Origin: an uncultured Gammaproteobacteria bacterium
GTDB lineage: Bacteria > Patescibacteriota > Microgenomatia > UBA12405 > JAHJSD01
Length of the DNA: 64,000 nucleotides
Reading direction: 5' to 3'
NCBI GenBank assembly: GCA_964428655.1
Contig: CAYRYE010000002.1
Span: forward strand, 103,472-167,471
Shown: positions 10,268-49,734 of the stretch, in pieces
Layout: each line of letters opens with the position of its first letter
Position numbering within the stretch: position 1 is the stretch's first letter
Notes under the pieces: generated by a model
What the model saw: only the letters and a program-made list of their open reading frames with translations
Told to the model about the DNA's origin: nothing
The model's database searches: none
Position numbers and translations under genes: made by a program

Positions 10268-10269
10268 CT

Positions 10270-16448: not shown

Positions 16449-16471
16449 AGTTTTAACAGGTTTCTTTAACT

Positions 16472-32369: not shown

Positions 32370-33656
32370 TCAATTAAAGTATACCAAATTGCCAGCAATT
32401 TCAACAAATTTTATTTTTGTCAACACCGGGTAGCCTGTCCCGACGTTACATCGGGGTTGACTTATACCTAAACACCGGCCGTGCGTCGCCAAAGGCTTTG
32501 CCGGCGGCATGGAGGCAATCGGAATATAATTATCTGATAAGCCTTTGCCATCTGGCCAAACAATGGCCATTGCCTTTTTGCCAATCTGACTTTGCCAGAA
32601 TCGCAAGCGAAGCTCTTTTTCCAGTTTAGCTAATTTTTTGGCCCTAATTTTTTTAGTCCTCTCATCAATTTGATTTTCCATTTCAGCCGCTGGCGTTCCT
32701 TTTCTTAACGAATATCTAAAAATGTGAATTTTGCCAAATTTAATTTTTTTCACAAAGTCTAAAGTTTTCTGAAAATCTTTTTCCGTCTCGCCGGGAAAAC
32801 CAACAATAATATCAGTGGTGATATTCAATCCTTTTCCTATTCTGCGTCGCACAATTTTGACTATTTTTTCGAACTGCTCGGTTGTGTAACACCGATTCAT
32901 TAATTTTAAAATCCGATTACTGCCAGACTGCAAACTCAGATGTAAATGCCTGGCTAATCTATCCCTTCCTATTTTTTTATAAATAGAAATCAGCTTTTCG
33001 ACATCAATCATTGGGTTTATGGAGCCCAGCCGCAAAAGTTTAACATCAGTTTTTTTCAAAACTTCTTCAACCAAGTCAATCCAACTCTTGCCATTATCAC
33101 TGTATTGGGAAACGTTTTGACCGGTTAAAACTATTTCCAAAGCGCCGTTGTTAATTGCTCTCTCTGACTGACAAACTATTTCCTTTACAGGAACACTAAT
33201 AGGTTTTCCTCGAATCAAACAAGGTAAGCAATAACTACAGGCGTTAGCACAGCCGGTTTGGATTTTGATTAAAACTCTTGAATCTTTGTCTCTTTTGCCA
33301 GCCGCGAGTCCTACTGGAGTGTTTTTATTACTAATTTTTTCCCACTTTTTCTCATTCTCCAACAGTTCATCTATTCTCTCTGGAACTCGGCCGCCAAACT
33401 TTTGAATTTTGTCCACCCAACAACCAGCAACTACTAACTTTGCTTTGGGATTCTTACGCCGCAACTGCCGAATCGCCTGCCGAGTTTCTTTCTCTGCCTT
33501 ATGAGTAACTACACAGGTATTTAAAACCAATAAATCTGCCTTCTCGGCCTCTTTTGCTTTCTTCCAGCCACTTCCCAAAAGCAAACCCTCCAGTTTCTGA
33601 CTCTCCGCCTGATTCAACCGACAACCCAAAGTTTGGATATAAAAAAGATTTTTCAT
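32370..33656 (-). CDS. MiaB/MtaB-family radical SAM methylthiotransferase with atypical C-terminal extension
   Basis: 428 aa; N-terminal MTTase domain IQTLGCRLNQAES, radical SAM CANACSYCLPC; C-terminal about 45 aa contains the shared 25-nt element in a different frame from the pth copy. Confidence 0.75.
   Translation of the reverse strand: MKNLFYIQTLGCRLNQAESQKLEGLLLGSGWKKAKEAEKADLLVLNTCVVTHKAEKETRQAIRQLRRKNPKAKLVVAGCWVDKIQKFGGRVPERIDELLENEKKWEKISNKNTPVGLAAGKRDKDSRVLIKIQTGCANACSYCLPCLIRGKPISVPVKEIVCQSERAINNGALEIVLTGQNVSQYSDNGKSWIDLVEEVLKKTDVKLLRLGSINPMIDVEKLISIYKKIGRDRLARHLHLSLQSGSNRILKLMNRCYTTEQFEKIVKIVRRRIGKGLNITTDIIVGFPGETEKDFQKTLDFVKKIKFGKIHIFRYSLRKGTPAAEMENQIDERTKKIRAKKLAKLEKELRLRFWQSQIGKKAMAIVWPDGKGLSDNYIPIASMPPAKPLATHGRCLGISQPRCNVGTGYPVLTKIKFVEIAGNLVYFN
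32479..32503. repeat. 25-nt hairpin-capable element (copy 2) ccgtgcgtcgccaaaggctttgccg
   Basis: see copy 1 at 31260-31284. Confidence 0.75.
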
Positions 33657-36124: not shown

Positions 36125-36201
36125 GTTCCCGTAGCTCAGATGGATAGAGCGTTCGCCTCCTAAGCGAAAGGTCGAGGGTTCGAATCCCTCCGGGAGCACC
36201 A
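36125..36201 (+). tRNA. tRNA-Arg (anticodon CCT), CCA encoded; last A is the A of the next gene's ATG
   Basis: GTTCCCG-TA-GCTC-AGATGGATA-GAGC-G-TTCGC-CTCCTAA-GCGAA-AGGTC-GAGGG-TTCGAAT-CCCTC-CGGGAGC-A-CCA. Confidence 0.75.
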
Positions 36202-37661
36202 TGAACCAAAATCAAACCTCTAAAGAGGCAATTGAGATCCATCTTCGCACCTACCGTTCAGTTTTGCGGAGTTCAAATGAAATTGCTGTTTCTACTTTAA
36301 TTCCCACTTATCTAAAAATGAATCCATTATTACACCCCAAGGCGGGCTTGGAAAATGAAACAGACCAGGAAGCTCTCGCTTATGCTCTCAATCGTTTTCC
36401 TAAAGAAATTCTACAGACAAAATTAATTGTTATTGGTCAAACTAAAAAAGTTTTCCTAGAAGCTGACTATAATCTTGGCAAATGGAAAAGAGTCAAGGCT
36501 CTTCATCGGCGGCGGCAAACTTTCTTTGATCCAAAAACTAAAACTCTAGCTTGCTTTGCCGCTTCTATCTCTGACGTTGACGATATTGTTAATCTGGCCA
36601 TTGCTCTTCAAATTGAGCTTAAAAAGAGCGGGGTGAAAAAACACATAAGAATCTCTGGTGAAGTTCCAAACTTTAAAATCAAGCTGCTGGCTGGCACTTG
36701 GGTTAATTTTGCCAAAACGGCTCAAAATTGGTGGCAAACGGTGATCAGAAAAACCAAATCCCAATTTGACCTCGTCAATCAACCACTGGTTTTCATTTCC
36801 TCCAACAATCATAGCCTGATTAATTCCCTAGATTGTTTTTGTCTTGATCACAAAAGCGAAATCCTTGATCATTTTAAAAAAGAAAGGCCAGAGATCAAAT
36901 CTAACAAAAATTCCTACTTTATTTATTTTGCTTCTCAATTCGTATTCAAAACCAACAAAAATCTCTGGCAAAAGAAACTGGCTAGAGAAAAAAAATTGGG
37001 AATTATCCGCATCCCACCCCAAACTAGTCTCTATTCAGAAACACAAATCATTCCAGGAAAACTTATTAGTAAAAAACTCAAAGATCTAATTATTTTAAAC
37101 ATTGAATATCCTTTAGGTTTTGCTGCTTTTCATCTTCTAGAGGAGGTTTTAGAAAACGCTCAGAAAATACTGGCAGTTTACATTCTAGGTAAAGCGGCTG
37201 CCTTAAACACGAAAATTGGTGATATTCTAATTCCTAAAATCGTCTTTGACGAACACACCCAAAATACCTATATGCTGAACAATTGTTTTAACAATAACTT
37301 CCCATATAAATTCAAGACTGGTTCTGTCTTGGATAATCAAAAATTAGTCTCTGTCTTAGGCACTTTTCTGGAAAACAAAGATCTTTTCAACATCTACTCA
37401 GAAAAAGAATTCAATATTATTGAAATGGAGGCCGGCCCCTACTTAGGAGCCATTGCTCAAGCCACTTACCCCAAGCCTTTGCCTCAAAATACGATTGTTG
37501 ATCTTCACCAGCCCCCGTTCGACCTTGGTTTAATCTATTATTCTTCAGACAGCCCCTATATTCTCTCACAGCGCTTAGGAGAATTTTTAGGATTAGCTGG
37601 AATTGAGGCCACCTATTTAACAACAAAAGCAATTATTGACAGAGTTAAGAAGATTTTTTGA
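36201..37661 (+). CDS. two-domain protein: unknown N-terminal domain plus C-terminal nucleoside-phosphorylase (PNP_UDP_1)-like domain
   Basis: 486 aa; C-terminal VYILGKAAALNTKIGDILIP and EMEAGPYLGAI resemble PNP/MTAN phosphate-binding and EMEA motifs. Confidence 0.45.
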   Translation: MNQNQTSKEAIEIHLRTYRSVLRSSNEIAVSTLIPTYLKMNPLLHPKAGLENETDQEALAYALNRFPKEILQTKLIVIGQTKKVFLEADYNLGKWKRVKALHRRRQTFFDPKTKTLACFAASISDVDDIVNLAIALQIELKKSGVKKHIRISGEVPNFKIKLLAGTWVNFAKTAQNWWQTVIRKTKSQFDLVNQPLVFISSNNHSLINSLDCFCLDHKSEILDHFKKERPEIKSNKNSYFIYFASQFVFKTNKNLWQKKLAREKKLGIIRIPPQTSLYSETQIIPGKLISKKLKDLIILNIEYPLGFAAFHLLEEVLENAQKILAVYILGKAAALNTKIGDILIPKIVFDEHTQNTYMLNNCFNNNFPYKFKTGSVLDNQKLVSVLGTFLENKDLFNIYSEKEFNIIEMEAGPYLGAIAQATYPKPLPQNTIVDLHQPPFDLGLIYYSSDSPYILSQRLGEFLGLAGIEATYLTTKAIIDRVKKIF

Positions 37662-37662
37662 G

Positions 37663-38319
37663 TTATTCTCTCGGCGCTTTGCCGTAAATAATAATTGTCG
37701 TTCCAGGATTATTCCTGCTGGCCGAAATACTCTTTCTTTCTCCCAAATCAGGCCTGGCCCAGTAATATAATTTGCCTGCGTCTTCAGTTCTTAAATTAAT
37801 GCAACCATGAGACATTGGATGACCAAAATTGCTGTGCCAATAAGTGCCATGGATGCCATAGCCGCGCCAGCTAGGTATTTTCTCATTATAGAAATACATT
37901 ACATAAGGAACATTGGGAAGATAATAGTAAGTTCGCAAAGCTTTTGAACCGCCTTCCATTTTGCAGTATCGAAGCTTAATCCAAATTTGAAAAACACCGG
38001 TTGGTGTCCGGCCCCATTTGCCCGTTGAAATCAAAAAGTTATAAACCATCCGACCATCTTGGTAAGCATAGAGCCGCTGATTGGTCAGATCTATTTCAAT
38101 TCTTTTTTGACCGGTTGTCTGACCCAAAACTCGAACACTTCCTTCATCACCAAGCAAAGACATATCTACGGGTAAAGCTTGGTTATTGTAAAAAGCAGTT
38201 ACGCCTGAAGGGTCAAACTGGCCGCTTAAAGCAGGAAGTTTTCCACTTGATCCAAGGAGAACCAAACAGGTAATCAAAAAAACATTAGTCACTACCAAAA
38301 AACGGTACCAAAATTTCAT
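37663..38319 (-). CDS. L,D-transpeptidase (YkuD domain) with N-terminal TM anchor
   Basis: HGTYWHSNFGHPMSHGCINL catalytic His/Cys motif. Confidence 0.8.
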   Translation of the reverse strand: MKFWYRFLVVTNVFLITCLVLLGSSGKLPALSGQFDPSGVTAFYNNQALPVDMSLLGDEGSVRVLGQTTGQKRIEIDLTNQRLYAYQDGRMVYNFLISTGKWGRTPTGVFQIWIKLRYCKMEGGSKALRTYYYLPNVPYVMYFYNEKIPSWRGYGIHGTYWHSNFGHPMSHGCINLRTEDAGKLYYWARPDLGERKSISASRNNPGTTIIIYGKAPRE

Positions 38320-38987
38320 TATTCCCGTGCCTCCTCAACAATTTCTACTGCTTTTGAGGTGCCAATCCGATCAGCACCAGCATCTAGATAGGCCCAAACT
38401 CGGGCGGCGGTAGAAATTCCTCCTGCCGCCTTAATTTTAACTTTATTAGCCACCACTTCTTTAATCACTTTCACATACTTTATCTTGGCATCACGAGGAC
38501 CAAACCCAGAAGTAGTTTTGACAAAATCAGCCCCAGAACGCATTACTAAACTAGAGGCTTTTCTAATCTCTTCTTCGTTCAAAAAATAAGCCTCAATAAT
38601 AAATTTAACAATTATCTGATTATTCTTCTTTTTTACCGCCTTGACTATCATGTCTAATTCTTTAAAATAATCAGTTTCTTTGCCTGCTTTTAACCAGCCA
38701 ACATTGGCAGAAATATCCAACTCGTCAGCTCCATTCTCAATCGCATTCAAACCAACAGCAATTTTAGCCTCAATTGTATCCTGACCCAAAGGAAATGAAA
38801 CCACTGTTCCCACTTTACCTTCATCACCCAAAAGCTCCCTGGCTAATTTCACCCAACAGGGGTTAACAAAAGCGGCGTTAAAGCCATACCTTAAAACCTC
38901 TTGACAAAGTCGTTGAATTTCTGCCTTAGTCGAAGAAGCGCCATGATTAGCGTGATCCAAAATTTTGGCCAATTTTTTATCACTCAT
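38319..38987 (-). CDS. deoC: deoxyribose-phosphate aldolase
   Basis: 222 aa; DeoC TIM-barrel signatures incl. Schiff-base Lys region VKIKAAGGIST. Confidence 0.8.
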   Translation of the reverse strand: MSDKKLAKILDHANHGASSTKAEIQRLCQEVLRYGFNAAFVNPCWVKLARELLGDEGKVGTVVSFPLGQDTIEAKIAVGLNAIENGADELDISANVGWLKAGKETDYFKELDMIVKAVKKKNNQIIVKFIIEAYFLNEEEIRKASSLVMRSGADFVKTTSGFGPRDAKIKYVKVIKEVVANKVKIKAAGGISTAARVWAYLDAGADRIGTSKAVEIVEEARE

Positions 38988-39042: not shown

Positions 39043-39279
39043 TTAACCCATTAAACGCTTTGCTTTCTTCAAAACCGAACCAATATCCCCTCTGTACCCA
39101 TTGGTGCCAATTCTGATCCTTACCCGTCCTGGAGGCAATGGTCTTCTTTTCGCACCACACTGATTTGCTGTCTCTTTTACTGTCATCCGAGTAGTGCGCC
39201 CGTCACCAAACCATTCTTCTACCACACCCCTTATAACGGGAAGCTTTTCTCTATTAACAACAACTTTGTATGATGGCAT
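39043..39279 (-). CDS. hypothetical small basic protein (78 aa)
   Basis: ORF only. Confidence 0.3.
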   Translation of the reverse strand: MPSYKVVVNREKLPVIRGVVEEWFGDGRTTRMTVKETANQCGAKRRPLPPGRVRIRIGTNGYRGDIGSVLKKAKRLMG

Positions 39280-39322: not shown

Positions 39323-39985
39323 ATGCTCTTAAATTACAAGAAGCTAACCAGCTTTCTGGAAATAGACTGTGCTAAAATCTCAAACAGAATGATTAATGCT
39401 CTCTCAGGCTACTTGGCTGGCCTATCAGTGGGTGTTTACTGCTTAGGACTTTGTCTGCCGGTTTTTCTACCCATTCTTCTTTCTGAAAAAAGAGATAATA
39501 AAAAGAGTTTTCTTTTAATTTTAGAATTTTCGGCTGGACGATTGGTTGGCTATTTTCTTTTCGGCCTTATTTTCGGCTGGCTCGGCCAAACAATACGCAA
39601 TCAGCTAATTCATACTCTTGTTTCTCTGGTTAACCTTTGGATGGGGATCATGTTAATTCTCTACGCTTTAGGCAAAATTGAAAAAAAGCTCTGCGCCCTG
39701 ATTCCTTTTGCCAAAATTCGCTGGCCGTTTTTAGTTGGTTTCTTAACTGGAGTCAACGTTTGTCCGCCTTTTATTGCCTCTTTAACTCACATTTTCAATC
39801 TTAAAAGCGCAATAAAATCAATAATTTACTTTTTAGCCTTCTTTTTAGGCACCAGCACCTACCTAATCCCCGCCGCCTTTTTCGGCATCTTTACCAGATT
39901 CCCAATTATTCAGAAGTTGGCCCGAATCAGCGGAGTTTTGGTAGGAATCTACTTTATCAGCCGAAATCTAATTCTTATTTTTTAA
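39323..39985 (+). CDS. polytopic membrane protein with CxxxC in TM1 (DsbD_2/CcdA-like candidate)
   Basis: 220 aa, 6 predicted TM; VYCLGLCLP motif. Confidence 0.35.
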   Translation: MLLNYKKLTSFLEIDCAKISNRMINALSGYLAGLSVGVYCLGLCLPVFLPILLSEKRDNKKSFLLILEFSAGRLVGYFLFGLIFGWLGQTIRNQLIHTLVSLVNLWMGIMLILYALGKIEKKLCALIPFAKIRWPFLVGFLTGVNVCPPFIASLTHIFNLKSAIKSIIYFLAFFLGTSTYLIPAAFFGIFTRFPIIQKLARISGVLVGIYFISRNLILIF

Positions 39986-40390
39986 CCCCTTCATAAAATA
40001 GCCCAATCGAGCCATAAGGTGAAAAAAACTTATCACCACAAAAGAAGTTCCTAAATTATTGTGCCAAGAGAAAAGAAATTGATTGCTAACTCCTAAGCCC
40101 AAAAGCATACCAAAAACTCCAGCCGGAATAAAGAGAAGGAGTAAACTCACATTCCAAAAATATTTAAAACCAGCTTTAGATAAAAATGTGGTTTTGTTTA
40201 CCAAATACCAATGAAGAAAATACAAAACGGCCGGAATAAAAATAAACCAAAAAATCGGGTCAGCAGAAGCCTTTATTTGCTCTCCCAAAACTACTTCGCT
40301 TCGATCACAAATCTGATTACTGTTCTCATCAATATAGAGACTGCATAATCCAGGATAAGGATCATTGATACGACTATAAGGACAATTCAT
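39968..40390 (-). CDS. hypothetical membrane protein (140 aa)
   Basis: Cys-containing N-terminus then 3 TM helices. Confidence 0.3.
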   Translation of the reverse strand: MNCPYSRINDPYPGLCSLYIDENSNQICDRSEVVLGEQIKASADPIFWFIFIPAVLYFLHWYLVNKTTFLSKAGFKYFWNVSLLLLFIPAGVFGMLLGLGVSNQFLFSWHNNLGTSFVVISFFHLMARLGYFMKGLKNKN

Positions 40391-40408: not shown

Positions 40409-41527
40409 ATGAGTAAAAAATATCTTGGCTTGTTAATCATTATAGCAGGAATAATTCTCTCCCTGCTGATTGTCATTAAAAATTCAATCAGCCAAAAAGG
40501 CCTTTCATCAGAAAATTTACAAGAGGCAAGTTATTATACTCAACTTGAGAACGGCAAGGTTCAATGCAATCTTTGCCCCAACCGCTGTGTTTTAAAACCA
40601 GGCCAGCGGGGCATCTGCGGCGTCCGGGAAAATATTAAGGGCAAGCTTTATTCCTTGGTTTACGGCAAACCTGTCTCCATTCATGTTGATCCAATTGAAA
40701 AAAAACCGTTTTACCATTTCCTGCCTGGAGCAAGAGTTTACTCTCTAGCCACTGTTGGTTGTAATTTGGATTGCAAATACTGCCAAAACTGGGACATTGC
40801 CCATCGAGATCCTGAAGATGTCGAAGCAAGAGATATGACTCCTCAACAAGTAGTCAATGAGGCTCTCCAGAACAAAGCTCAAATAATCGCCTTCACCTAC
40901 AACGAGCCAACTGTTTGGTACGAATACATGTTGGACATTGCCAAACTGGCTAAAGAAAAAGGTTTGCGAACAGTGATTATCACCAGCGGCTTTATTAATC
41001 CTGAACCCTTAAAAGAACTTCTTCCTTATCTTGACGCAATTAAAATTGATCTTAAGGCTTTCAATAATCAAGTTTATTCTGATCTTATCCAAGGCAGACT
41101 TGAACCGGTTTTAGACTCAATCAAAACTGTTAAGGAATCAGGTAAGTGGTTGGAATTAGTCAATCTAATTGTTCCCGGCTACACTGACGATCTTGATGAA
41201 ATTGGCCGAATGTGCCAATGGATCAAAGAAAACATCGGTGATGAAACTCCAATTCACTTCTCTAGATTCTGGCCAAAATATAAACTACTTAATCTGCCGC
41301 CAACATCAGAAGAAATCGTCAAACAAGCTCGCCAAACTTGTTTAGATATTGGTTTGAAATATGTTTATACCGGCAACATTGATGATCTGACCGGCAGTAC
41401 CACTTATTGCCCAGATAACAACCAGTCCTTGCTTCGCCGCCATGGTTATATTATTGAAGAAAACCTAATTGACTCCACCGGCAACTCAAAAGTTTGCCCA
41501 AGTCAAATTCCTGGAGTGTGGAATTAA
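40409..41527 (+). CDS. AmmeMemoRadiSam-system radical SAM enzyme, copy 1, with N-terminal TM anchor
   Basis: 372 aa; N-terminal TM LGLLIIIAGIILSLLIV, then CNLCPNRC...GICGVREN, HVDPIEKKPFYHFLPG, radical SAM GCNLDCKYCQNW; paralog of 43436-44503. Confidence 0.8.
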   Translation: MSKKYLGLLIIIAGIILSLLIVIKNSISQKGLSSENLQEASYYTQLENGKVQCNLCPNRCVLKPGQRGICGVRENIKGKLYSLVYGKPVSIHVDPIEKKPFYHFLPGARVYSLATVGCNLDCKYCQNWDIAHRDPEDVEARDMTPQQVVNEALQNKAQIIAFTYNEPTVWYEYMLDIAKLAKEKGLRTVIITSGFINPEPLKELLPYLDAIKIDLKAFNNQVYSDLIQGRLEPVLDSIKTVKESGKWLELVNLIVPGYTDDLDEIGRMCQWIKENIGDETPIHFSRFWPKYKLLNLPPTSEEIVKQARQTCLDIGLKYVYTGNIDDLTGSTTYCPDNNQSLLRRHGYIIEENLIDSTGNSKVCPSQIPGVWN

Positions 41528-43429
41528 TCAATTTACCCGAGTCGGACTGCAAAAAACTACTAAAAGCAGTAAAACTACCAGAAATCCCGAAAGATTAACT
41601 ATTCCCAACCCCGGCAATAAACAAGTGGCAGTTAATAGGGCGCCGAGAAAACCGCCAAAAAGATCAAAGGCGTAAATAAAGGCTGGATCTTTAGTTTTGG
41701 CAAGATAACAGGCGTTGGTTAAAGCATAAACAGCTCCATCAATAAAGCCACTGGCAATGCCAATTACCAGCCAAAACCAAATAAAGCCTTGCCAATGACC
41801 ACCAATAAACAAAAAGATGAAAATCAAAAGATAACTAACTAAAGCTGGCTTTAGCCATTGCTTTTTCCTTTCAACCCAATCGCCCAGCCAAACTCCTAAC
41901 GCCATTCCCAACAGCACCGCCGCAATAATTAACCCTAGTTGAGAATAAAGGTAGCCAATCTTGGTTTGAAAAAGAAAAAGAATCAAAGTCTCAACCGCCA
42001 TTAAAACAAAGCTGGAAGCGCCTGCTATTAAACCTAATCGCCGCTTTGAACTTAATTTGATGTTTAAAACAATTAAACCCGCTAACAAGGCCAATGGCAA
42101 AAACCAAATCATCCTCCCCATTATTTTGGGTAACTTAAAACTGGAAATCGTCTGCCAAAACAAGTGATGATAGAAGTAAGCTAAAGGCCAATGATCACGA
42201 TTTAATTCCTTTGTTCCTTTGTTAAACCTTGCTGTCAGATCTTTCCGCCGCTGATCCTGCCAAACCCAACGAAAATACTCGCCCTCAGTTTCTGGATCAA
42301 TCTTGATTGGCAACGATGAACCTAAAATAATTACTCTTTCTTCGGCCATCAGTAATTCTGTTTCCGGAAAAACCTGGTTAATGGTTTGGTAAATAATTTT
42401 TCCAAAACGCAATGCTTCTTCACTTTGATAATCAACTGGCAAATAAAACATCAAGGTAAAAATTCCTTTTTTGGTTAATTTTGCTTTAACTACCTTGAAG
42501 AACTCTAAAGTGAAATAACGATTAGTCAAAAGATTACTGGGGTTGCCCGGGGAAAAAACAATTAAATCCCAGTCATTAGCGCTTGCCAAAAATCGGCGAG
42601 GATCACTAACAAACGGCTTAACTGATTGATCCAAAAACTCTTTTTGCAGCTCAAAAAGTTTTCTCTCTGAAGAAAGAAAGACTGACTCCTGTGGCAAAAG
42701 TGTACTTGTTAATTCGTTGGCTAAATTTAAATCTCCAAAAGTCAAAATTTTTGCTGGGGTTGACAAAAATACTGGAAACAAACCAGCTATTTGCCGGCTG
42801 GAAAATCTTTCTTGATTATTAAAAACTGGATTGCCAGAAGAAAAAATTGTCTGCTGGCCAAGATTTTCAGCAACAATCAATTGACTTCCTTTAGAATAAA
42901 CAATTTTGGTTAGGTCGGGATACCGCCTTTTTAACGTTTGACAATCAAATTTAGAGGGCAAGGGAAAAGCTGTTTGACTTAAAACAAAAGTATAAAAAAG
43001 ACCGGCAGCAACAAAACCTATTGTTTCCCAAAAGTAAGCCAGGTTGGGTTTATAGCCCGTTTGACAACCTAAAGTAAACAAGGCTCCGGAAAGAATTGAA
43101 AGGGGCAAAACAGCCAAAGCGGTAATTAGCATTGCTTCAAAGAGTGACGGCAGTTCGCCAAAAGGCAAAACACGACTTAAAATCAAACGCAGCAGAATCA
43201 ACGTTATAGGTACCAATAAAGCAAAAATAAGTTGTAAAAACCAAACCAAACGGAGAAATCGGTAAAGCCTTTTTGCCCACAAGCTCCCCAAACCAACAAA
43301 AAGCAGCCAAAAACCTAAACCAAGAGCATAGAAAATCTCATCTCCCCCAAACCAACTAATCAGCTCGCGCAGAACTACTAGTTGACCCAAAAGTGAAAAA
43401 ACTCCTAATAGAAAAAAGAAAACAAGCAT
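41528..43429 (-). CDS. polytopic membrane protein with embedded spermidine-synthase-like (aminopropyltransferase fold) domain
   Basis: 633 aa; TM helices at both ends; central DLIVFSPGNPSNLLTNRYFTLEFFKVVKAKLTKKGIF resembles SpeE DVIIVDSSDP...FYQ...L..GG motifs. Confidence 0.6.
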   Translation of the reverse strand: MLVFFFLLGVFSLLGQLVVLRELISWFGGDEIFYALGLGFWLLFVGLGSLWAKRLYRFLRLVWFLQLIFALLVPITLILLRLILSRVLPFGELPSLFEAMLITALAVLPLSILSGALFTLGCQTGYKPNLAYFWETIGFVAAGLFYTFVLSQTAFPLPSKFDCQTLKRRYPDLTKIVYSKGSQLIVAENLGQQTIFSSGNPVFNNQERFSSRQIAGLFPVFLSTPAKILTFGDLNLANELTSTLLPQESVFLSSERKLFELQKEFLDQSVKPFVSDPRRFLASANDWDLIVFSPGNPSNLLTNRYFTLEFFKVVKAKLTKKGIFTLMFYLPVDYQSEEALRFGKIIYQTINQVFPETELLMAEERVIILGSSLPIKIDPETEGEYFRWVWQDQRRKDLTARFNKGTKELNRDHWPLAYFYHHLFWQTISSFKLPKIMGRMIWFLPLALLAGLIVLNIKLSSKRRLGLIAGASSFVLMAVETLILFLFQTKIGYLYSQLGLIIAAVLLGMALGVWLGDWVERKKQWLKPALVSYLLIFIFLFIGGHWQGFIWFWLVIGIASGFIDGAVYALTNACYLAKTKDPAFIYAFDLFGGFLGALLTATCLLPGLGIVNLSGFLVVLLLLVVFCSPTRVN

Positions 43430-43435
43430 TATTTA

Positions 43436-44503
43436 ATGTTAAAATTAATCAAAGATAATTTAATTATGCCAAACCTAAAGGCCTTTTACCAAAAACAGGC
43501 TAAGAATACTATCCGCTGTCTGGCCTGCTCGCATCATTGTCTGATCCACAAAAGTGAAAAGGGTATCTGCGGTGTTCGAGAAAACAACAAGGGAAAATTA
43601 AAGCTCCTGGTTAAAGGGAAAGCCGTAGGTATGCACCTTGATCCCATTGAGAAAAAACCGCTATTTCATTTTCTTCCCGGAGAAACAGCTTTGTCGTTTG
43701 GCACTCTTGGCTGTAATTTCTCCTGCCAATTTTGCCAAAACTGGACTCAATCCCAATCACCAAAACAAACTGACAATGTCCCTAAACTCATTGAAAAAAT
43801 CAGCCATAATTATTCGCCAAAAGAAATCGTTGATCTGGCTTTAGAATTCAAATCCCCAACCATTGCCTATACCTACAATGAACCAACGATTTTTATTGAA
43901 TATGCTCTGGAAACAATGACTCTGGCCAAAGAGGCCGGCTTGAAAAATGTCTGGGTCAGCAATGGCTTCATGAGCCGCCAAACACGAAAGGCTTTGGCCA
44001 GTAAACTCGATGGTATTAATATTGACCTTAAAAGTTTTAATCCTGATTTCTACCACCAAATTTGTGGAGCCAAAATCGAACCAGTTCTCGACAACATTAA
44101 GTGGCTCTGGAAAAAGGGTGTTTGGGTTGAAGTGACTACTCTGATTATTCCTGACAAGAATGATTCCCCCAGTGAACTGAAAAAGATTGCCAATTTTTTA
44201 AAAGACATCTCTTCCAATTTACCTTGGCACATTACTCCTTTTTATCCCAGCTACAAAATGCTTAATAAACCAAGAACTCCGGCAGAAAAATTACTTGAAG
44301 CTTGGCAAATCGGCAAAAAAGCAGGCCTAAATTTTGTTTACCCGGGAAATATTATTAATGAGGAACATGCTTCAACACATTGCAGCAAATGCGGCCAATT
44401 ATTAATAAAAAGAAGCGCTATTGGAGTAAGGGTAACCAGCAATTTTAAAAATGGCAGTTGTCAAAAATGTAGTCAGAAAATTCCGGGAATATGGCGGCGC
44501 TAA
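43436..44503 (+). CDS. AmmeMemoRadiSam-system radical SAM enzyme, copy 2 (soluble)
   Basis: 355 aa; CLACSHHC...GICGVRENNKGKL, LDPIEKKPLFHFLPG, GCNFSCQFCQNW. Confidence 0.8.
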   Translation: MLKLIKDNLIMPNLKAFYQKQAKNTIRCLACSHHCLIHKSEKGICGVRENNKGKLKLLVKGKAVGMHLDPIEKKPLFHFLPGETALSFGTLGCNFSCQFCQNWTQSQSPKQTDNVPKLIEKISHNYSPKEIVDLALEFKSPTIAYTYNEPTIFIEYALETMTLAKEAGLKNVWVSNGFMSRQTRKALASKLDGINIDLKSFNPDFYHQICGAKIEPVLDNIKWLWKKGVWVEVTTLIIPDKNDSPSELKKIANFLKDISSNLPWHITPFYPSYKMLNKPRTPAEKLLEAWQIGKKAGLNFVYPGNIINEEHASTHCSKCGQLLIKRSAIGVRVTSNFKNGSCQKCSQKIPGIWRR

Positions 44504-46023
44504 AACCAATTCTTATCACTGTTTTCTTAGCTGGAATAATCCTGTTTTTGCTTTTTATTTTTCGCTCCCGAAACAATGATAAAATAACAAAAGAAGAGAT
44601 GAAAACGACTCGCCAATCTGCTGTTTCAGGCAGTTTTTATCCAGCTAATAAAAACGAACTTCAGGAGCAGATCAATGCTTTACTACTATCAAATGAAAAA
44701 ATTACAAATGACCAAATGATTAAATTGTTAGTAGTTCCCCACGCCGGCTATGATTACTCAGGGGCAGTTGCCGCGGCTGGATTCAAACAGATCGAAGGAC
44801 AAACAATCAGCCAAGTAATCATCCTCGGCAGTTCCCATCAAGCCTGGTTCAACGGAGCCGTCATTGATGAAAGCGATTCTTGGCAAACTCCTTTAGGAGA
44901 AGTGGCTCTTGATAAAGAATTGGCTGAAAAACTAATCAATCAAGAAAACGATATTATTTTTTCCTCCAGCCATCATAGCCAAGAACATTCTCTGGAGGTT
45001 GAACTTCCCTTTTTACAAACTGTTCTAAAAAACTTCAAGATTGTGCCAATTCTTTTAGGAAACGCCAATGACCAAACAATTGAAAAATTAGCTGATCTAA
45101 TTACTCAGAACTTTGATGAAAAAACCCTCACTGTTGTCAGCACTGATCTTTCCCACTACCCCAGTTATGATATTGCCCAACAAGTTGATCAAAACACTAT
45201 TAACAGTATTATTTCTGGTGATGTTGTTAATTTTGAAAGAACAATCAGCCAACAAATGAGTATTGGCTACCCCAATTTAGACACTTGTGTCTGCGGCGAA
45301 AAAGCAGTTAAAACAGGCATGTTGATTGCTCAAAAACTAGGTCAGGCAAATTGGCAGCTGGTCAAATATGCCAACTCTGGGGACTCCACTTCGCCAGAGC
45401 TTCGCGGGGCAAGTGAAAGCCGAGTTGTTGGTTATGCGGCAATCATTTGGACGCAAAAAAGCGCTAAAAAGGAACACTATCCGGGATCGTCCCAACTGCT
45501 TTTAAAAATCGCCCGAGAAACTCTTGAAACTCATCTCAAAAACAAGAAAACTCCTGAATATAACATTGATGATCCAAAACTAAATGAAAAACTGGGTGTT
45601 TTCGTCACTTTAAGAAAAAATGATCAACTCCGCGGCTGTATGGGTGATTTTGATCCCAAAACACCACTTTGGCAAACAGTTCAGCGCCAAGCGATTACTG
45701 CCGCCACCGAAGACCCGCGCTTTTCGCCAGTAGGCTATGATGAATTAAAAGAGATTAAAATCGAAATTTCAGTCCTTTCTAAACCTAAAGAAATTGATGA
45801 CTGGCAAAAAATTGAGTTAGGCAAACACGGCGTTGTTCTTCGTCAAGGCAGCCGCGGCGGCACTTTCTTGCCCCAGGTGGCCACAGAAACCGGCTGGGCT
45901 TTGGAAGAATTTCTTTCCCAACTTTGCTCTCAAAAAGCCGGTCTGCCGCCCGAGTGTTATAAAGATCAAAAAACTAAACTTTTAGTTTATACTGCTGAAG
46001 TGCTTGGTGAAAATGGAGATTAG
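44491..46023 (+). CDS. MEMO1-family (AmmeMemoRadiSam protein B) fused to AMMECR1 domain, with N-terminal TM anchor
   Basis: 510 aa; SGSFYPA...VVPHAGYDYSG (MEMO1) then C-terminal LRGCMGDF...RGGTFLPQV (AMMECR1 signature). Confidence 0.8.
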   Translation: MAALKPILITVFLAGIILFLLFIFRSRNNDKITKEEMKTTRQSAVSGSFYPANKNELQEQINALLLSNEKITNDQMIKLLVVPHAGYDYSGAVAAAGFKQIEGQTISQVIILGSSHQAWFNGAVIDESDSWQTPLGEVALDKELAEKLINQENDIIFSSSHHSQEHSLEVELPFLQTVLKNFKIVPILLGNANDQTIEKLADLITQNFDEKTLTVVSTDLSHYPSYDIAQQVDQNTINSIISGDVVNFERTISQQMSIGYPNLDTCVCGEKAVKTGMLIAQKLGQANWQLVKYANSGDSTSPELRGASESRVVGYAAIIWTQKSAKKEHYPGSSQLLLKIARETLETHLKNKKTPEYNIDDPKLNEKLGVFVTLRKNDQLRGCMGDFDPKTPLWQTVQRQAITAATEDPRFSPVGYDELKEIKIEISVLSKPKEIDDWQKIELGKHGVVLRQGSRGGTFLPQVATETGWALEEFLSQLCSQKAGLPPECYKDQKTKLLVYTAEVLGENGD

Positions 46024-47320
46024 AATTAAAAGGCCTACTAAAATTGTCAAACTCATCATCATTACAGCCATATTTGGCCTTGGGATCACTGCCGGCTATT
46101 TCTGTCGATCTAAAAAGTCGCCAGCTAATCCGAATCAGGCAGCCAAAGAGAAAAATATTTACATCGCCCTTGTTTTGGAAGTTTATGACAAAATTAAAGA
46201 AAATTATTGGCAAAAAATAGATGATGAAAAATTAACCAACACTTTTGTTCTGGGAATCGAAAAACTAACTGGCCAGCCTCAGCACTTAAAAACTCTTGAC
46301 CGGGCCAATCTTCAAGTAAAACTAAATGAAATTAACAAGCTATTTGACTCGGAAAAGAAGCAAAAAGAATTTGCCACTAAGCTAGTTGATGTGGCTTTAG
46401 CTAACTTGGAGCCTTTTGGCCGCAGTCGTCTTTATGTCAAAAAAGACGAAATCGCCCTAAAAAAGAATGTCGAAAACAGAACCGATGTTGATCACTACCA
46501 GGTTTTAGGAGTCAACAAAAAGGCTTCGACTGAAGAAATCAATAAAGCCTTTGAAGAAAAAATCAAAGAAGTGGAAAAAGACGATTCTCCTGAAAACGAA
46601 GAAAAACAAAAAGCCCTTGCTCAAGCTCACCGCGTTCTCTCCGAATTAGAAGCCCGAGAAATTTACAATGAATCCGGCATTGAACCAACTATTAATTACA
46701 AATTGATTCGGCCTGACATTCTTTACATTCATTGGACTAAATTTTCGCCCACCACCCTTGATGACATTAAAAGAGTCACTGAAAAATTTGATGATCGACA
46801 AGGTTTAGACACTTTGATTTTAGATCTAAGAGATAATGTTGGCGGAGCAATTGACGGCCTCCCTTATTTCCTTGGTCCTTTTATTGGCAATGATCAATAT
46901 GCTTACCAATTTTTCCATCAGGGCGAAAAAGAAGACTTTAAAACCAAAATCGGCTGGATGCCTAGTTTAGTTCGGTATAAAAAGGTAATTGTTTTAATCA
47001 ATGAAGGTACTCAGTCGTCGGCTGAAGTAATGGCCGCTGCTTTGAAAAAATACAATGTTGGCATCTTAGTCGGTACCAAAACTAAAGGCTGGGGCACAGT
47101 GGAAAAAGTTTTTAAACTTGACAATCAAATTGATCCTAACGAAGAATACTCTGCGTTTTTAGTCCACCGGCTAACTCTGAGAGACGACGGCCAGCCAATC
47201 GAGGGCCACGGCATTGATCCAGTGATTAACATCAATGATCCCGACTGGGAAAAGCAACTTTACTCCTACTTTCACTATGATGAGCTGGCCGAGGTAATAA
47301 AAGAGATTTTCGGGAGATAA
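46013..47320 (+). CDS. membrane-anchored J-domain-like plus S41 (C-terminal processing) peptidase-like protein
   Basis: DHYQVLGVNKKASTEEINKAFEEK J-like helix (no HPD); LILDLRDNVGGAIDG and NEGTQSSAEVMAAAL match S41 LIxDLRxNxGG and catalytic Ser motif. Confidence 0.55.
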   Translation: MEIRIKRPTKIVKLIIITAIFGLGITAGYFCRSKKSPANPNQAAKEKNIYIALVLEVYDKIKENYWQKIDDEKLTNTFVLGIEKLTGQPQHLKTLDRANLQVKLNEINKLFDSEKKQKEFATKLVDVALANLEPFGRSRLYVKKDEIALKKNVENRTDVDHYQVLGVNKKASTEEINKAFEEKIKEVEKDDSPENEEKQKALAQAHRVLSELEAREIYNESGIEPTINYKLIRPDILYIHWTKFSPTTLDDIKRVTEKFDDRQGLDTLILDLRDNVGGAIDGLPYFLGPFIGNDQYAYQFFHQGEKEDFKTKIGWMPSLVRYKKVIVLINEGTQSSAEVMAAALKKYNVGILVGTKTKGWGTVEKVFKLDNQIDPNEEYSAFLVHRLTLRDDGQPIEGHGIDPVININDPDWEKQLYSYFHYDELAEVIKEIFGR

Positions 47321-47361: not shown

Positions 47362-48588
47362 ATGGCCAACGGACATCCAGCCGGTCAACTGTACTTGCCT
47401 CACTGGCGTTACCGACCAAAACTCAAGGGGCTTTCGGGGATTTATATTAATACGGCCATCCGAAATCTGGCTAACAGCCTGATTGGTATTTTTATTCCTA
47501 TCTATATCTATAAAATAACCGGCAATTTCGCTCTTGTCTTTCTTTTTTACGCCATTTTCCGTCTGGCCACAATAGTCACCACTATTCCTGCCGCCAAAAT
47601 AATTAACAAAATTGGGCCTGACCTTTCAATGTTCATTTCCAGCATTACTCGATCAATTTATTTCATCCTTCTTATTTTGGCTAAAACTTCTTCGTTATCT
47701 TTATGGCTAGCGCCGGTTTTTGGTGGAATCACTGCCTTATACTGGCTCTCTTATCACAGCGCTTTTTCGTCTCAAAGTAAAAAAAAGAGGTTGTCGCGAC
47801 AAGTAGCCAATCTTTCCAACATCACCCGCTTAGCAACGATCTTTGCTCCTCTGCTTGGTGGTTTTATTGCCGATCAACTTGGGTTCCAAGTTCTCTTTCC
47901 CGCCGGAGTGCTTCTATTAGTCGCCTCATCACTACCAATCTTTCTGGATGAATACAATAAAAAGGAAAGGGTCTTGCCTCTCCCAAAACTGGAAAAGGAA
48001 ATTTTTTCTCAAAAAAACAAGAATCTATTTTTTGCCTATTTTTTTCAAGGCATTCATGGCAATGTAACCGGCATTGCCTGGCCTTTAATCCTTTATTTAT
48101 TCCTCCCCAACTTAGAGAAAATTGGCGGACTGACCACTTTCACCCTGATTATCTCCCTTATCACCGTTAACTGGTTCAGTCGGAGAATCAACCAGTTTAA
48201 GATTCTGCCTTTTTCTCTGGGTAATATAGCCAGAAGTCTTTTGTGGCTGCTAAGAGGAATAACTGTTAATCCTTTGCTGATTATTTTTTCTGACCCTGTT
48301 TTCCAAGTTTCCTCTGTTTTCGTTAATCTCCCCCACAATATCCTTCTTTATCAATTGGGTAAAAAAAATTCCCTTTCTTTCTTTGTTCAACGAGAACTTG
48401 CTCTCCACATGGGCACTTTTGTCTCCAGCTTACTTACTTTCTTTATTCTCTTTCACGGTTTTTCTTGGCCAATTGTCACTCTTCTTGCTGTTTGGGGAAT
48501 CAATTTAAGCACCATCTTTATGACCAAGTATTCCCAGACAACAAAACCACCCTTTGAAAAATTCAAAATAAAGCTCGCCAGACTTTAA
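47362..48588 (+). CDS. MFS-like polytopic membrane transporter
   Basis: 408 aa, about 12 TM helices, two 6-TM halves. Confidence 0.5.
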   Translation: MANGHPAGQLYLPHWRYRPKLKGLSGIYINTAIRNLANSLIGIFIPIYIYKITGNFALVFLFYAIFRLATIVTTIPAAKIINKIGPDLSMFISSITRSIYFILLILAKTSSLSLWLAPVFGGITALYWLSYHSAFSSQSKKKRLSRQVANLSNITRLATIFAPLLGGFIADQLGFQVLFPAGVLLLVASSLPIFLDEYNKKERVLPLPKLEKEIFSQKNKNLFFAYFFQGIHGNVTGIAWPLILYLFLPNLEKIGGLTTFTLIISLITVNWFSRRINQFKILPFSLGNIARSLLWLLRGITVNPLLIIFSDPVFQVSSVFVNLPHNILLYQLGKKNSLSFFVQRELALHMGTFVSSLLTFFILFHGFSWPIVTLLAVWGINLSTIFMTKYSQTTKPPFEKFKIKLARL

Positions 48589-48612: not shown

Positions 48613-49734
48613 CTATTTGTGAGCCCAGTGTGAGATATCAATCAAAACTACGTGCTTGTCGTCATAATCACCGGAGTTGGAAACAATTTTCACAGCCCCA
48701 TCCTTTTTAAGCACTGCTTCATCTTCAATCTCGGGAGAGCAGTAATCTGTGCCATCTGAACCAACCAAAAGAACAACTTGACGCCCAGCCCCATACACCT
48801 CGCTAGACGCAAATTCTGCCTTTTTCATTACTCCTATTCTCAGGTTTTTCTCAAATGCGCGGCGCGGCTGACCAAATGCAGTATCGATTGCTCCTTCTAA
48901 GTTGTCAACAGTTTCCGCTGCCCCTTGCGGCGTATTCTCTGCTTCTATAAATCTTCCAAGCAATTCCTGCCTTGCTTCACTAACTGCCTGGCTGATTTCT
49001 GATGGCGTCATTTCTTCAGTAGAACCAATATATCTCCTCAGTATATTTTGAGGCACTTCTAAAATTCTTTTTTCTTCAGGCTGAGCGCTGGAAATTAATT
49101 CAAGTCTTTCATCTCCCGCATAAGCCCAGGCAATATGATCTTCGGTAATCAAAACAACTGCGCCGGCAGTAGAATAATCAAATTTATCTTTTCTTCTCGC
49201 TCCTTTATAAGCCTGGTGAATCCGTCCATTCATATAAAGTGCCAATCGGCCGCAAAATTCCTGAGGAGAATCACTGAGACTATTTTCAAAGGCTTCTTCT
49301 CCACGAGCCACAGCGCTTACAGCACTCTGCGCGGCTTCTATGCCTTGAGTGGCTGCCATATGCCCATTTCCGCCCTCACTAACACCGTCAAGAGAAACAA
49401 TTAAAAGAGACTCACCAAACTTTGGGTGTTTAAAAACAGCCGCCAACATTCTGTCGTCACCGCCAACACCTTTTGCCTCCTTATCACTTCTAGCTTGAAT
49501 AGCGGCGCTGACAAACAATCTGGATTCTGCCAAAGAAACATTTCTTTGCATTTGGTGCATCGGCGGCTTTGCGCCCTCCACCACTTCCCTGCCCAAAGCC
49601 AAATAATTATTTCCAAGATGATCTTTTTCTTTTTTTTGAACTGAAATAATATCTTCTCCCATATTTTGCAATCTTTTCCGTAATCTGTTATACACTACAT
49701 ATAACATAAATGAGTCCTGAACATCAAAAAGCAA
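48613..49734 (-). CDS. PP2C-like (SpoIIE/PPM family) phosphatase-like protein, degenerate
   Basis: VSLDGVSEGGNGHMAATQG resembles VADGMGGH..G PPM motif; AYAGDERL resembles GDSR motif. Confidence 0.4.
   Translation of the reverse strand: MLFDVQDSFMLYVVYNRLRKRLQNMGEDIISVQKKEKDHLGNNYLALGREVVEGAKPPMHQMQRNVSLAESRLFVSAAIQARSDKEAKGVGGDDRMLAAVFKHPKFGESLLIVSLDGVSEGGNGHMAATQGIEAAQSAVSAVARGEEAFENSLSDSPQEFCGRLALYMNGRIHQAYKGARRKDKFDYSTAGAVVLITEDHIAWAYAGDERLELISSAQPEEKRILEVPQNILRRYIGSTEEMTPSEISQAVSEARQELLGRFIEAENTPQGAAETVDNLEGAIDTAFGQPRRAFEKNLRIGVMKKAEFASSEVYGAGRQVVLLVGSDGTDYCSPEIEDEAVLKKDGAVKIVSNSGDYDDKHVVLIDISHWAHK

Follow-up and report, generated by a model that had tools for sequence, protein, structure and literature searches.

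On which side of the membrane does an AmmeMemoRadiSam system work when one of its radical SAM enzymes and its Memo-AMMECR1 fusion both carry N-terminal signal anchors? This question is raised by a locus in the window, the whole stretch of 64,000 nucleotides analyzed here from an uncultured Patescibacteriota bacterium. We favor, with a probability of roughly 0.6, the reading that the locus is an extracytoplasmic (outer-face) AmmeMemoRadiSam branch with one extra radical SAM paralog of cytoplasmic type. All open reading frames of the original prediction were present at their coordinates. Two further genes, for a DsbD_2-family and a Cys-rich protein, belong to the neighborhood and were not listed there; the export-type signals, the DsbD_2 partner, and the split of the two radical SAM enzymes between clades had also been overlooked. 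The features are as follows:

39323-39985, plus strand: DsbD_2-family protein with six transmembrane (TM) helices (PF13386, 74.8 bits), probable start at 39389
39968-40390, minus strand: membrane protein of 140 aa whose N-terminal domain is rich in Cys (3 Cys) and whose TM helices contain His
40409-41527, plus strand: rSAM1, first AmmeMemoRadiSam radical SAM enzyme, a member of the signal-bearing clade that begins with a signal anchor (MSKKYLGLLIIIAGIILSLLIVIK)
41528-43429, minus strand: MFS-SpeE, 12-TM MFS-fold protein of 633 aa, with a SpeE-fold domain inserted in the TM5-TM6 loop
43436-44503, plus strand: rSAM2, second AmmeMemoRadiSam radical SAM enzyme, cytoplasmic type, without signal
44491-46023, plus strand: Memo-AMMECR1 fusion, signal-anchored at its N-terminus (TIGR04336 and TIGR04335 matches)
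46004-47320, plus strand: membrane-anchored J-like/S41 peptidase (J-S41; DnaJ and Peptidase_S41 matches)
47362-48588, plus strand: MFS_1 transporter (PF07690, 62.4 bits)

Profile searches agreed with the family identities proposed earlier, namely two TIGR04337 enzymes, a TIGR04336/04335 fusion, a DnaJ plus Peptidase_S41 protein, and an MFS_1 transporter. The TIGR04337 scores were 373.5 bits for rSAM1 and 359.1 bits for rSAM2 (cut-off 220), and both enzymes contain the C-x2-C-x3-C...GICGVREN region together with a CxxxCxxC motif. The two share 39% identity and fall into different clades, with rSAM1 clustering with Tat/Sec-signal enzymes and rSAM2 with the signal-less L023, L058, and L085_r2. 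The duplication noticed in the original prediction is real, and ancient rather than recent. The true start of rSAM2, judged by comparison with its L085 ortholog, is probably M11 (43466), and its gene overlaps that of the fusion by 13 nt. The fusion itself combines Memo (aa 41-319, 256 bits) and AMMECR1 (aa 336-504, 184 bits) domains; H84/H116/C268 are invariant, the motifs LRGCxG and DxRF are present, and its sequence matches in the PDB were PH0010 (4.5e-34) and human MEMO1 (1e-18).

The proposed membrane association also proved real. N-terminal hydrophobic segments are kept in 117/120 close homologues of rSAM1 and 95/120 of the fusion. The rSAM1-type anchors are more positive on their N-terminal than on their C-terminal flank (net +2.0 vs +1.0), and in rSAMs of the CPR they are of KK type, not RR signals. 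A lipobox occurs in about 16/120 fusion homologues, these orthologs being 48–55% identical, and a very basic stretch directly follows many fusion anchors, including that of the window (FRSRNNDKITKEEMKTTR) and those of the lipobox-bearing orthologs.

Export signals were widespread beyond the window. Among the best 150 representative clusters retrieved with the rSAM1 core, where signals were called from motifs and hydropathy rather than by a trained predictor, 90 had no N-terminal extension, 29 had canonical twin-arginine signals (e.g., MISRREFMQ in L088, MRRRDFLKG in L090, and ISRRQVLR in L091), 2 had KR/RK signals, 6 had Sec-like signals or anchors, and 10 had a hydrophobic N-terminus with extra domains; about one third bore a Tat signal, a Sec-like signal or anchor, or an N-terminal fusion to a DsbD_2, FMN_bind/NapH-like, or secreted-type domain. 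All rSAMs tested were genuine TIGR04337 members (330–375 bits). The signals of their Memo-AMMECR1 partners co-vary with them: matching lipoprotein or Sec signals were found in L088 and L091 (lipobox), L082 (AFA|QDRQPAVAG), L068, L060, and L036, and a signal-less fusion is paired with a signal-less rSAM in L058. L073/P0292 and P0295 are single polypeptides in which the three domains all follow one N-terminal signal or anchor. Further fusions constrain which side of the membrane the rSAM occupies; they place FMN_bind between an anchor and the rSAM with no intervening TM (P0313, P0315), or have six TMs between FMN_bind and rSAM with CxxxCP motifs after TM3 and TM5 (P0294, P0308), FMN_bind directly following a DsbD_2 domain in P0308. 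In P0215, a DsbD_2-rSAM fusion from the CPR, loops 1, 3, and 5 contain 3, 4, and 3 Lys/Arg, and the loops alternating with them contain 0, 0, and 1, a distribution that points to an external rSAM.

Two membrane proteins accompany these enzymes. Four Cys of the DsbD_2 protein (CxxxC in TM1, C in loop 3, and C[PA]P in TM4) were invariant in 14/14 homologues adjoining fusion/rSAM genes; the gene adjoins in 10 loci, and the domain is covalently fused to rSAM in P0215, P0289, P0311, and P0308. The protein may shuttle thiol reducing power or electrons across the membrane and is a conserved partner of signal-bearing rSAMs. The neighboring 140-aa protein (precomputed assignment PF27309 MJ0753_N) has orthologs at the same position in L085, with a weak DUF4405 match below threshold (E 7e-4), and in L086, where the Cys-rich domain is preceded by a cleavable signal peptide; it is a lineage-specific accessory and possibly a small redox protein. 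For MFS-SpeE, the family profile search gave no match above threshold. In its AlphaFold model (pLDDT 92.3), 5 + 7 TM helices flank a domain of degenerate aminopropyltransferase (SpeE) fold (about aa 156-430), and the Foldseek match of this domain to 1uir (E 3.5e-8; family profile vs 1uir, E 1.3e-27) substantiates the spermidine-synthase-like domain suggested earlier; distant family members match PF01564 and PRK03612. The TM5-TM6 loop carrying the domain is predicted to face outward. None of 44 family members has the first catalytic Asp, and only 5/44 retain the second; in the window copy, the Gly-rich loop and ribose-binding Glu are missing as well. A polyamine-like substrate, as originally proposed, is therefore not indicated, and the further losses weaken a SAM-handling role in this organism.

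The architecture had been called unusual, but the anchored fusion and the anchored rSAM occur in hundreds of Patescibacteria, anchored Memo-AMMECR1 fusions (~500 aa) and anchored rSAMs (~370 aa) each forming more than 120 clusters there, and the trio of rSAM, fusion, and MFS/SpeE-like protein recurs in distant phyla. A search for MFS-SpeE homologues found an adjacent radical SAM gene at 8/8 places, diderm and Syntrophales-like contigs included, and this rSAM carried a signal at 7/7 places with DNA. Many fusion loci had no rSAM, DsbD_2, or MFS-SpeE gene within 10 kb. The signal-bearing branch is apparently large and undescribed, and its export signals, together with adjacent membrane proteins potentially able to pass electrons and cofactor through the membrane, suggest radical-SAM chemistry on the cell exterior.

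We hypothesize that rSAM1 and the fusion would each be held by their signal anchors at the outer face of the cell membrane of an anaerobic Microgenomates/Patescibacteria cell, where SAM would be cleaved outside the cytoplasm and the two may act together on a substrate located in the cell envelope. As to the anaerobic context, NrdD/NrdG are encoded within the window, and among Pfam families AMMECR1 ranks first as a marker of anaerobes (PMC13386939). A DsbD_2-type cysteine relay would carry reducing equivalents outward, a supply that FMN_bind/NapH-like modules fused to rSAM may take over in other lineages. The SpeE-fold domain of the MFS-fold transporter, nucleotide-binding and degenerate in its catalytic residues, would be exposed on the outer side, most economically to deliver or hold a SAM-derived cofactor or a small amine co-substrate. 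Several points count against this location. To our knowledge, no radical SAM enzyme acts outside the cytoplasm, and neither SAM nor a reductant of low potential is known to occur there; a thiol relay is not reducing enough for a radical SAM cluster. The KK anchors of CPR proteins imply export via Sec/YidC as an unfolded chain, and no way of inserting Fe-S clusters extracellularly is known. Translation of the cytoplasmic-type rSAM2 is coupled to that of the anchored fusion, L023 has an anchored fusion with only a cytoplasmic-type rSAM nearby, and the basic stretch after the fusion anchors would be cytoplasmic under the positive-inside rule, although lipobox-bearing orthologs have one too.

A rival reading is a tethered complex facing the cytoplasm. 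N-out/C-in helices would tether rSAM1 and Memo-AMMECR1 to the inner face beside soluble rSAM2, the substrate would be membrane-embedded (e.g., an isoprenoid lipid), and DsbD_2 and MFS-SpeE would serve post-reaction export or redox. The cytoplasm is where SAM, reductant, and Fe-S assembly are located, the CPR rSAMs lack the RR motif, the rSAM2 and fusion genes overlap, the basic stretch follows the fusion anchor, and Burroughs et al. 2019 reportedly tied Memo contexts to isoprenoid modification. We nevertheless consider it unlikely, given the lipoboxes on the fusion orthologs, the external rSAM of P0215, the window MFS-SpeE topology with its soluble domain outside, the clustering of rSAM1 with Tat/Sec-signal enzymes, and the charge bias of its anchor type.

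The original prediction had envisaged a membrane-associated peptide- or polyamine-processing machine with J-S41 and the MFS transporter as integral parts and the SpeE-like domain transferring aminopropyl groups, which we find distinctly improbable. J-S41 (DnaJ PF00226, aa 163-222, 43 bits, without the HPD motif; Peptidase_S41 PF03572, aa 238-409, 99 bits) does carry an N-terminal anchor too and overlaps the fusion gene by 11 nt, as first reported, when counted from the ATG at 46013, its probable start (20 nt from the TTG), and TIGR04337 enzymes resemble glycyl-radical activases, whose targets are proteins; peptide-processing systems also contain related rSAM domains (PMC7159879). However, J-S41 adjoins the fusion only in the close relatives L005, L085, and L086, the MFS_1 transporter is a neighbor in L005 and L086 alone, where its distance varies, and both are absent from all more distant loci keeping rSAM, fusion, and MFS-SpeE (with or without DsbD_2). 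No precursor-peptide candidate was found, a 78-aa ORF (39043-39279) having no family match, and the SpeE-like family has lost the first catalytic Asp in all 44 members and the second in most. J-S41 is a co-transcribed neighbor, not a core part, and the transporter is probably peripheral and outside the system; the families, duplication, membrane association, and SpeE-like domain of that interpretation stand, while its rarity, J-S41/MFS role, and polyamine substrate do not. Hardly credible is an ordinary soluble three-protein set with mis-called starts as anchors and coincidental synteny of membrane neighbors: it would suit the many fusion loci lacking the other genes and the L085 fusion, whose N-terminus some gene callers trim, but the conserved anchors speak against it, and linkage across phyla and covalent rSAM fusions with DsbD_2, FMN_bind, NapH-like, and Memo-AMMECR1 domains already contradict it.

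The extracytoplasmic reading can be set beside four known systems. The AMMECR1-Memo-radical SAM neighborhood, AMMECR1-dioxygenase fusions, and the Memo-AMMECR1 fusion have been known since 2007 (Balaji & Aravind 2007, PMC2034487). As in the classical set (TIGR04335/04336/04337), all three families exceed curated cut-offs in the window and keep their active-site motifs (AMMECR1, RGChG and DxRa; Memo, the His/His/Cys metal site; rSAM, CxxxCxxC). That set is described as soluble and cytoplasmic, whereas here one rSAM and the fusion have signal anchors (Tat, Sec, or lipoprotein signals elsewhere in the branch), MFS-SpeE and DsbD_2 are obligate membrane partners of the branch, and a second, cytoplasmic-type rSAM is added. 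By HMM score, the closest characterized relatives of TIGR04337 are glycyl-radical-enzyme activases of the PFL-AE family (PFLA 83 bits, YjjW activase 70 bits), but all these scores lie far below cut-offs, TIGR04337 has an extra N-terminal four-Cys region and C-terminal Cys pair, the partners are Memo and AMMECR1, and no glycyl-radical enzyme was found near the locus. MFS-SpeE shares an MFS-fold TM domain and a SpeE-fold domain with fused MFS/spermidine synthases (NCBIfam NF037959) and membrane-bound polyamine aminopropyltransferases (PRK03612), yet it scores far below cut-offs (20.5 vs 40 bits), holds the SpeE domain inside an outward loop rather than end-attached, has lost the catalytic Asp residues, and belongs to a family linked specifically to AmmeMemoRadiSam genes. 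Finally, FMN_bind/NapH-like modules are extracytosolic electron-transfer devices in a survey that leaves radical SAM, Memo, and AMMECR1 unmentioned (Méheust et al. 2021, PMC8238504). The window differs in having DsbD_2 (PF13386) rather than PF02683, and its neighborhood contained no FMN_bind or ApbE gene. What is shared is that signal-bearing rSAMs have PF04205, PF12801, and a DsbD-type Cys relay either as fused domains or as products of adjacent genes, which suggests that here, too, electrons are passed to an enzyme on the outer face.

All of the open reading frames named in the original prediction, which proposed an expanded, membrane-tethered AmmeMemoRadiSam locus, were recovered at the positions listed here, together with two neighboring genes that it did not name.

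Genes of the locus (window positions and strand)
39323-39985 (+), DsbD_2 protein (PF13386, 74.8 bits against a cut-off of 24.9), absent from the original prediction
39968-40390, divergent from rSAM1, 140-aa Cys-rich membrane protein (precomputed PF27309 MJ0753_N), absent from the original prediction
40409-41527 (+), rSAM1, anchored AmmeMemoRadiSam radical SAM enzyme (373.5 bits)
41528-43429 (-), MFS-SpeE, 633-aa polytopic membrane protein
43436-44503 (+), rSAM2, cytoplasmic-type AmmeMemoRadiSam radical SAM enzyme (359.1 bits), probable start M11 at 43466
44491-46023 (+), Memo-AMMECR1 fusion, 510 aa
46004-47320 (+), J-S41, J-like/S41 peptidase
47362-48588 (+), MFS transporter

Both radical SAM genes scored well above the TIGR04337 cut-off of 220, as had been claimed, and carry the CxxxCxxC cluster motif (CNLDCKYC in rSAM1 and CNFSCQFC in rSAM2); rSAM2 overlaps the fusion gene, and rSAM1 lies 3 kb upstream of it. 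The proposed fusion was borne out as a Memo domain (TIGR04336, aa 41-319) followed by an AMMECR1 domain (TIGR04335, aa 336-504), and the window holds no other Memo or AMMECR1 gene. The Memo domain reached 256.3 bits (TIGR04336, PF01875; cut-off 26), with H84, H116, and C268 invariant among 27 homologues; mapped by motif (PHAG, SH, C-G), these residues probably correspond to the MEMO1 metal ligands H49, H81, and C244 (PMC11081632). The AMMECR1 domain (TIGR04335, PF01871; 183.8 bits, cut-off 99) contains LRGCMG and DPRF, in which G382, C383, G385, D408, R410, and F411 are invariant, and the diagnostic motifs of this family are RGChG and DxRa (PMC2034487). Profile matches likewise agree with the predicted J-like/S41 protein (J domain plus Peptidase_S41) and the MFS_1 transporter after it. 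J-S41 scored 99 bits with PF03572 (cut-off 24) and 87.5 with TIGR00225 (cut-off 218.6), no PDZ domain was detected, and candidate Ser (GTQSSAE) and Lys (TKGWG) dyad residues were picked by eye; its J domain gave 43 bits with PF00226 but is missing the HPD motif, the position reading EVEKDD.

Promoter and terminator scans returned hits at chance level (23 versus 22.6 and 12 versus 12.7, respectively), so gene overlaps are the sole basis for placing the operon boundaries. Only 18 nt separate the divergent genes for the 140-aa protein and rSAM1 (40390/40409), and 6 nt separate MFS-SpeE from rSAM2 (43429/43436), or 36 nt if rSAM2 begins at M11; with near-zero intergenic DNA in both divergent pairs, promoters must sit within the neighboring coding sequences.

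The observation behind the original prediction was thus confirmed, while its interpretation is supported in part, and what failed was the claim of an unusual architecture and of a machine extending into J-S41 and the MFS transporter. An anchored Memo-AMMECR1 fusion beside an anchored radical SAM enzyme is commonplace in this lineage: each of the 120 best fusion-homologue clusters is a Memo+AMMECR1 protein of ~500 aa, 95 of them with an N-terminal hydrophobic segment, and 117 of the 120 best clusters of the ~370-aa radical SAM enzyme have an anchor. Close homologues carry the NCBI names Microgenomates, Shapirobacteria, or Gottesmanbacteria, and a genome-contig search with the fusion protein led to at least one distant locus (L001, from Neomarinimicrobiota, at 32% identity). 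Among 80 metagenome loci retrieved via the fusion, radical SAM enzymes were the commonest neighbors (18 loci), ahead of DsbD_2 proteins (10 loci) and 633-aa protein homologues (8 loci), and one locus (L085) repeats the whole window architecture, both radical SAM genes included. Accompaniment by J-S41 and the MFS transporter is restricted to the nearest relatives (L005, L085, and L086), and the two were rejected as core components. At the other end of the locus, a DUF6909 protein, a YkuD L,D-transpeptidase, and a DeoC-like aldolase (window 36201-38987) hold their place beside the DsbD_2 end in L086, with DeoC also in L085, which is probably lineage synteny. In 8-9 non-CPR loci (L057, L061, L064, L066, and others, e.g., L064:12109-14171), the genes after the fusion encode an RsmE-type RNA methyltransferase (PUA_4 + Methyltrans_RNA) and a MiaB/RimO-like radical SAM protein, a context that may lie behind the older RNA-modification hypothesis for AMMECR1.

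In its other genes, the window resembles a genome of anaerobic Patescibacteria/Microgenomates, with Mur ligases, PBP2, MreB, two NrdD and NrdG, and a thioredoxin-reductase-like gene. The NrdD paralogs are tandem and overlapping (16980-19070 and 19067-20956, within 15415-20956 on the minus strand), with the NrdG-like activase nearby (15415-16113). Directly downstream of a MiaB/RimO-like UPF0004 + radical SAM gene (32370-33656) is a tRNA-Ile (32272-32345, -) whose anticodon, UAU, is seldom seen in bacteria, and a tight array of seven tRNAs (Thr, Arg, Ser, Arg, Thr, Ala, Trp) with spacing down to 1-3 nt occupies 9603-10343 (+). Also present in this otherwise minimal CPR-type genome is a GH125 metal-independent alpha-mannosidase (11450-12838, +, 522 bits). 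Two open reading frames of 632 aa (34107-36005, -) and 373 aa (48613-49734, -) have weak or no family assignment (PP2C_2, E 0.0027) and are rich in Ala/Glu/Gly/Val, their neighbors being rich in Lys/Ile/Asn; GC content in the window peaks, at 0.442, in the 34-36 kb segment, and an acidic 131-aa open reading frame resembling these two interrupts the orthologous cluster in L086.

The two radical SAM enzymes share 39% identity and fall into separate clades of a core tree, which indicates that the predicted duplication is ancient, rules out a recent one, and marks the copies as being of different kinds. A signal-less clade contains rSAM2 of the window, the second copy of L085 (L085_r2), L023, and L058; the other clade contains rSAM1 and all remaining sequences, each with an N-terminal signal-like segment. 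Every radical SAM enzyme tested belonged to TIGR04337. Outside CPR bacteria, the signals in the second clade are of three sorts: canonical twin-arginine (L088, MISRREFMQ; L090, MRRRDFLKG; L091, ISRRQVLR), KR variants (L053, L060, L082, and L089), and Sec-like signal peptides (L064, L067, L075, L076, and L081). Tat signals were called by motif, TIGR01409 giving no report on full-length proteins. With the rSAM1 core as query, an exhaustive HMMER search found 1557 representatives at E <= 1e-30, of which the best 150 were classed by N-terminal extension.

N-terminal extensions of the best 150 radical SAM clusters
No extension: 90/150
Twin-arginine (RR) signal: 29/150
KR/RK signal: 2/150
Sec-like signal or anchor: 6/150
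Hydrophobic N-terminus plus extra domains: 10/150
N-truncated, long extension without hydrophobic segment, or short unclassable extension: 13/150

About a third of the system's radical SAM enzymes, among these best 150 of 1557 representatives, therefore bear export signals. The window's rSAM1 has no Tat motif (S/T-R-R-x-F-L-K), its N-terminus MSKKYLG offering KK and no RR, and the window's fusion has no lipobox (L-x-[GAS]-C) and no Cys within its N-terminal 60 residues. The signals of partner Memo-AMMECR1 proteins co-vary with those of the radical SAM enzymes, being of lipoprotein or Sec type in L088, L091, L082, L068, L060, and L036, and lacking in L058, where the radical SAM enzyme likewise has none. 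In some 16 of the 120 best fusion orthologs (CPR), a lipobox precedes a conserved C-x4-(D)-Y-L-x-L stretch. A further set of proteins of 900-1150 aa (P0337, P0338, P0362, P0373, P0382-P0384, P0389, P0396, P0401, P0404, P0414, P0423, and P0433) combines a signal-less N-terminal TIGR04337 core with ~700 further residues.

In the confident AlphaFold model of the 633-aa protein (pLDDT 92.3, pTM 0.91), five helices precede a soluble domain and seven come after it; the model has both a 12-TM MFS fold and a SpeE fold including the N-terminal beta-hairpin domain. The spermidine-synthase-like domain predicted to be embedded in it is thus present as a fold, with all sequence matches to spermidine synthases sub-threshold (TIGR00417, 19.4 bits versus 249.55; PF01564, 13.8 versus 22.9). 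The window copy lacks the catalytic D-x-x-D-P and the Gly-rich dcSAM loop, reading S-P-G-N-P and FGDLNLA instead, and has S in place of the ribose-binding Glu; across the family, the first catalytic position is Asp in 0 of 44 members, the adenine-binding Asp is kept in 41, and the ribose-binding Glu in 33. The missing first Asp, Glu, and Gly-rich loop rule out an active spermidine synthase. Loop Lys/Arg counts in the 44 members show the alternating pattern of a canonical N-in MFS protein, and the TM5-TM6 insert is predicted to lie outside; this topology was taken from AF2 helices and loop statistics, which replaced a first, ambiguous hydropathy topology that had missed helices. A radical SAM gene adjoins MFS-SpeE at all eight places retrieved via the family, and is signal-bearing at all seven with DNA. 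These places include L087 (a secretin/RND-bearing diderm contig) and L088 (a Syntrophales-like contig); most have the fusion, some have DsbD_2, and one distant locus again has two radical SAM genes. At the latter (P0286, JGI 3300042731), a distant MFS-SpeE homologue lies beside adjacent radical SAM genes of 385 and 351 aa, echoing the window, with heterodisulfide-reductase-like Fe-S genes upstream. We found no relevant description of a fused MFS/spermidine synthase in the literature searched.

Pfam scans of the radical SAM representatives revealed fusions to further domains.

Fusion architectures of radical SAM representatives
FMN_bind + NapH-like (Fer4_5) + radical SAM: P0293, P0294
DsbD_2 + FMN_bind + NapH-like + radical SAM: P0308
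Anchor + FMN_bind + radical SAM: P0313, P0315
DsbD_2 + radical SAM: P0289, P0215, P0311
Signal + beta-propeller or CBM_11 + radical SAM: P0287, P0291

In addition, L073/P0292 and P0295 unite one signal and all three catalytic domains in a single polypeptide. FMN_bind and NapH-like modules are established extracytosolic electron-transfer devices (PMC8238504). Zero transmembrane segments separate FMN_bind from the radical SAM domain in P0313 and P0315, and six do so in P0294 and P0308, both with cytoplasmic CxxxCP motifs after TM3 and TM5; these counts place the radical SAM domain on the same side of the membrane as FMN_bind. Since FMN_bind directly follows DsbD_2 in P0308, the DsbD_2 C-terminus should face out, which agrees with the Lys/Arg loop pattern of the CPR fusion P0215 (3, 4, 3 versus 0, 0, 1). 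In the DsbD_2 neighbors, putative transmembrane thiol relays, four Cys are invariant (14/14 homologues). At L017:103-1350, the DsbD_2 neighbor of the radical SAM/fusion cluster runs on, with no stop codon, into a NapH-like membrane domain with two CxxxCP motifs, and this continuous protein is a further tie between the system and transmembrane electron carriers.

The most coherent reading of these data is an outward-facing AmmeMemoRadiSam branch. The radical SAM enzyme would leave the cytoplasm by the Tat route in diderm bacteria and be held by a signal anchor in CPR bacteria, electrons would be supplied across the membrane by DsbD_2 or by FMN_bind/NapH-like modules fused to the enzyme, and the outward SpeE-fold domain of the MFS transporter may supply or hold a SAM-derived cofactor; the roles given to DsbD_2 and MFS-SpeE are our inferences. 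Three things would be wanting for a radical SAM enzyme after export, and the branch has a conserved counterpart to each: electrons could come through DsbD_2 or the FMN_bind/NapH modules, SAM through the MFS transporter with its SAM-binding-fold domain, and Tat signals would let the Fe-S protein cross the membrane already folded. It also fits the anaerobic distribution of AMMECR1 (PMC13386939). For the joint claim, that a large branch of the system performs radical SAM chemistry outside the cytoplasmic membrane with dedicated electron modules and cofactor supply by MFS-SpeE, we estimate a probability of about 0.45, slightly short of even odds.

A cytoplasm-facing tether in CPR bacteria is a live rival. 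Here the anchors would hold the enzymes to the inner face of the membrane, as suggested by the translational coupling of the cytoplasmic-type rSAM2 to the anchored fusion and by the basic stretches that come after the anchors. The rival stays live because the outward-facing reading leaves without account how Sec-type or anchored enzymes, the window's included, would acquire their Fe-S clusters, and it depends on SAM being present outside the cell.

Conservation of MEMO1 and AMMECR1 extends from archaea to humans, and both are linked to disease, yet what they do biochemically is still enigmatic; the three-gene set of bacteria offers the best way to find out. The export signals, together with the wiring to transmembrane electron carriers and a SAM-binding-fold MFS protein, yield a testable hypothesis, namely that a substrate located in the envelope undergoes a redox reaction in which the partner proteins are defined. 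In the literature searched, we found no description of exported, periplasmic, or Tat radical SAM enzymes, nor of periplasmic Memo or AMMECR1, and an earlier report is possible in either case. If the outward-facing reading is true, the radical SAM superfamily would gain its first extracytoplasmic enzyme system, and a cell-envelope substrate would be indicated for Memo and AMMECR1. To our knowledge, the working assumption is that the radical SAM superfamily is confined to the cytoplasm; an exported member would overturn it and raise new questions on how SAM, electrons, and Fe-S clusters are delivered outside. AMMECR1-dioxygenase fusions and the radical SAM neighborhood have been known since 2007 (PMC2034487), and the locus described here represents, in a form typical of CPR bacteria, a widespread and apparently undescribed variant of this known system.
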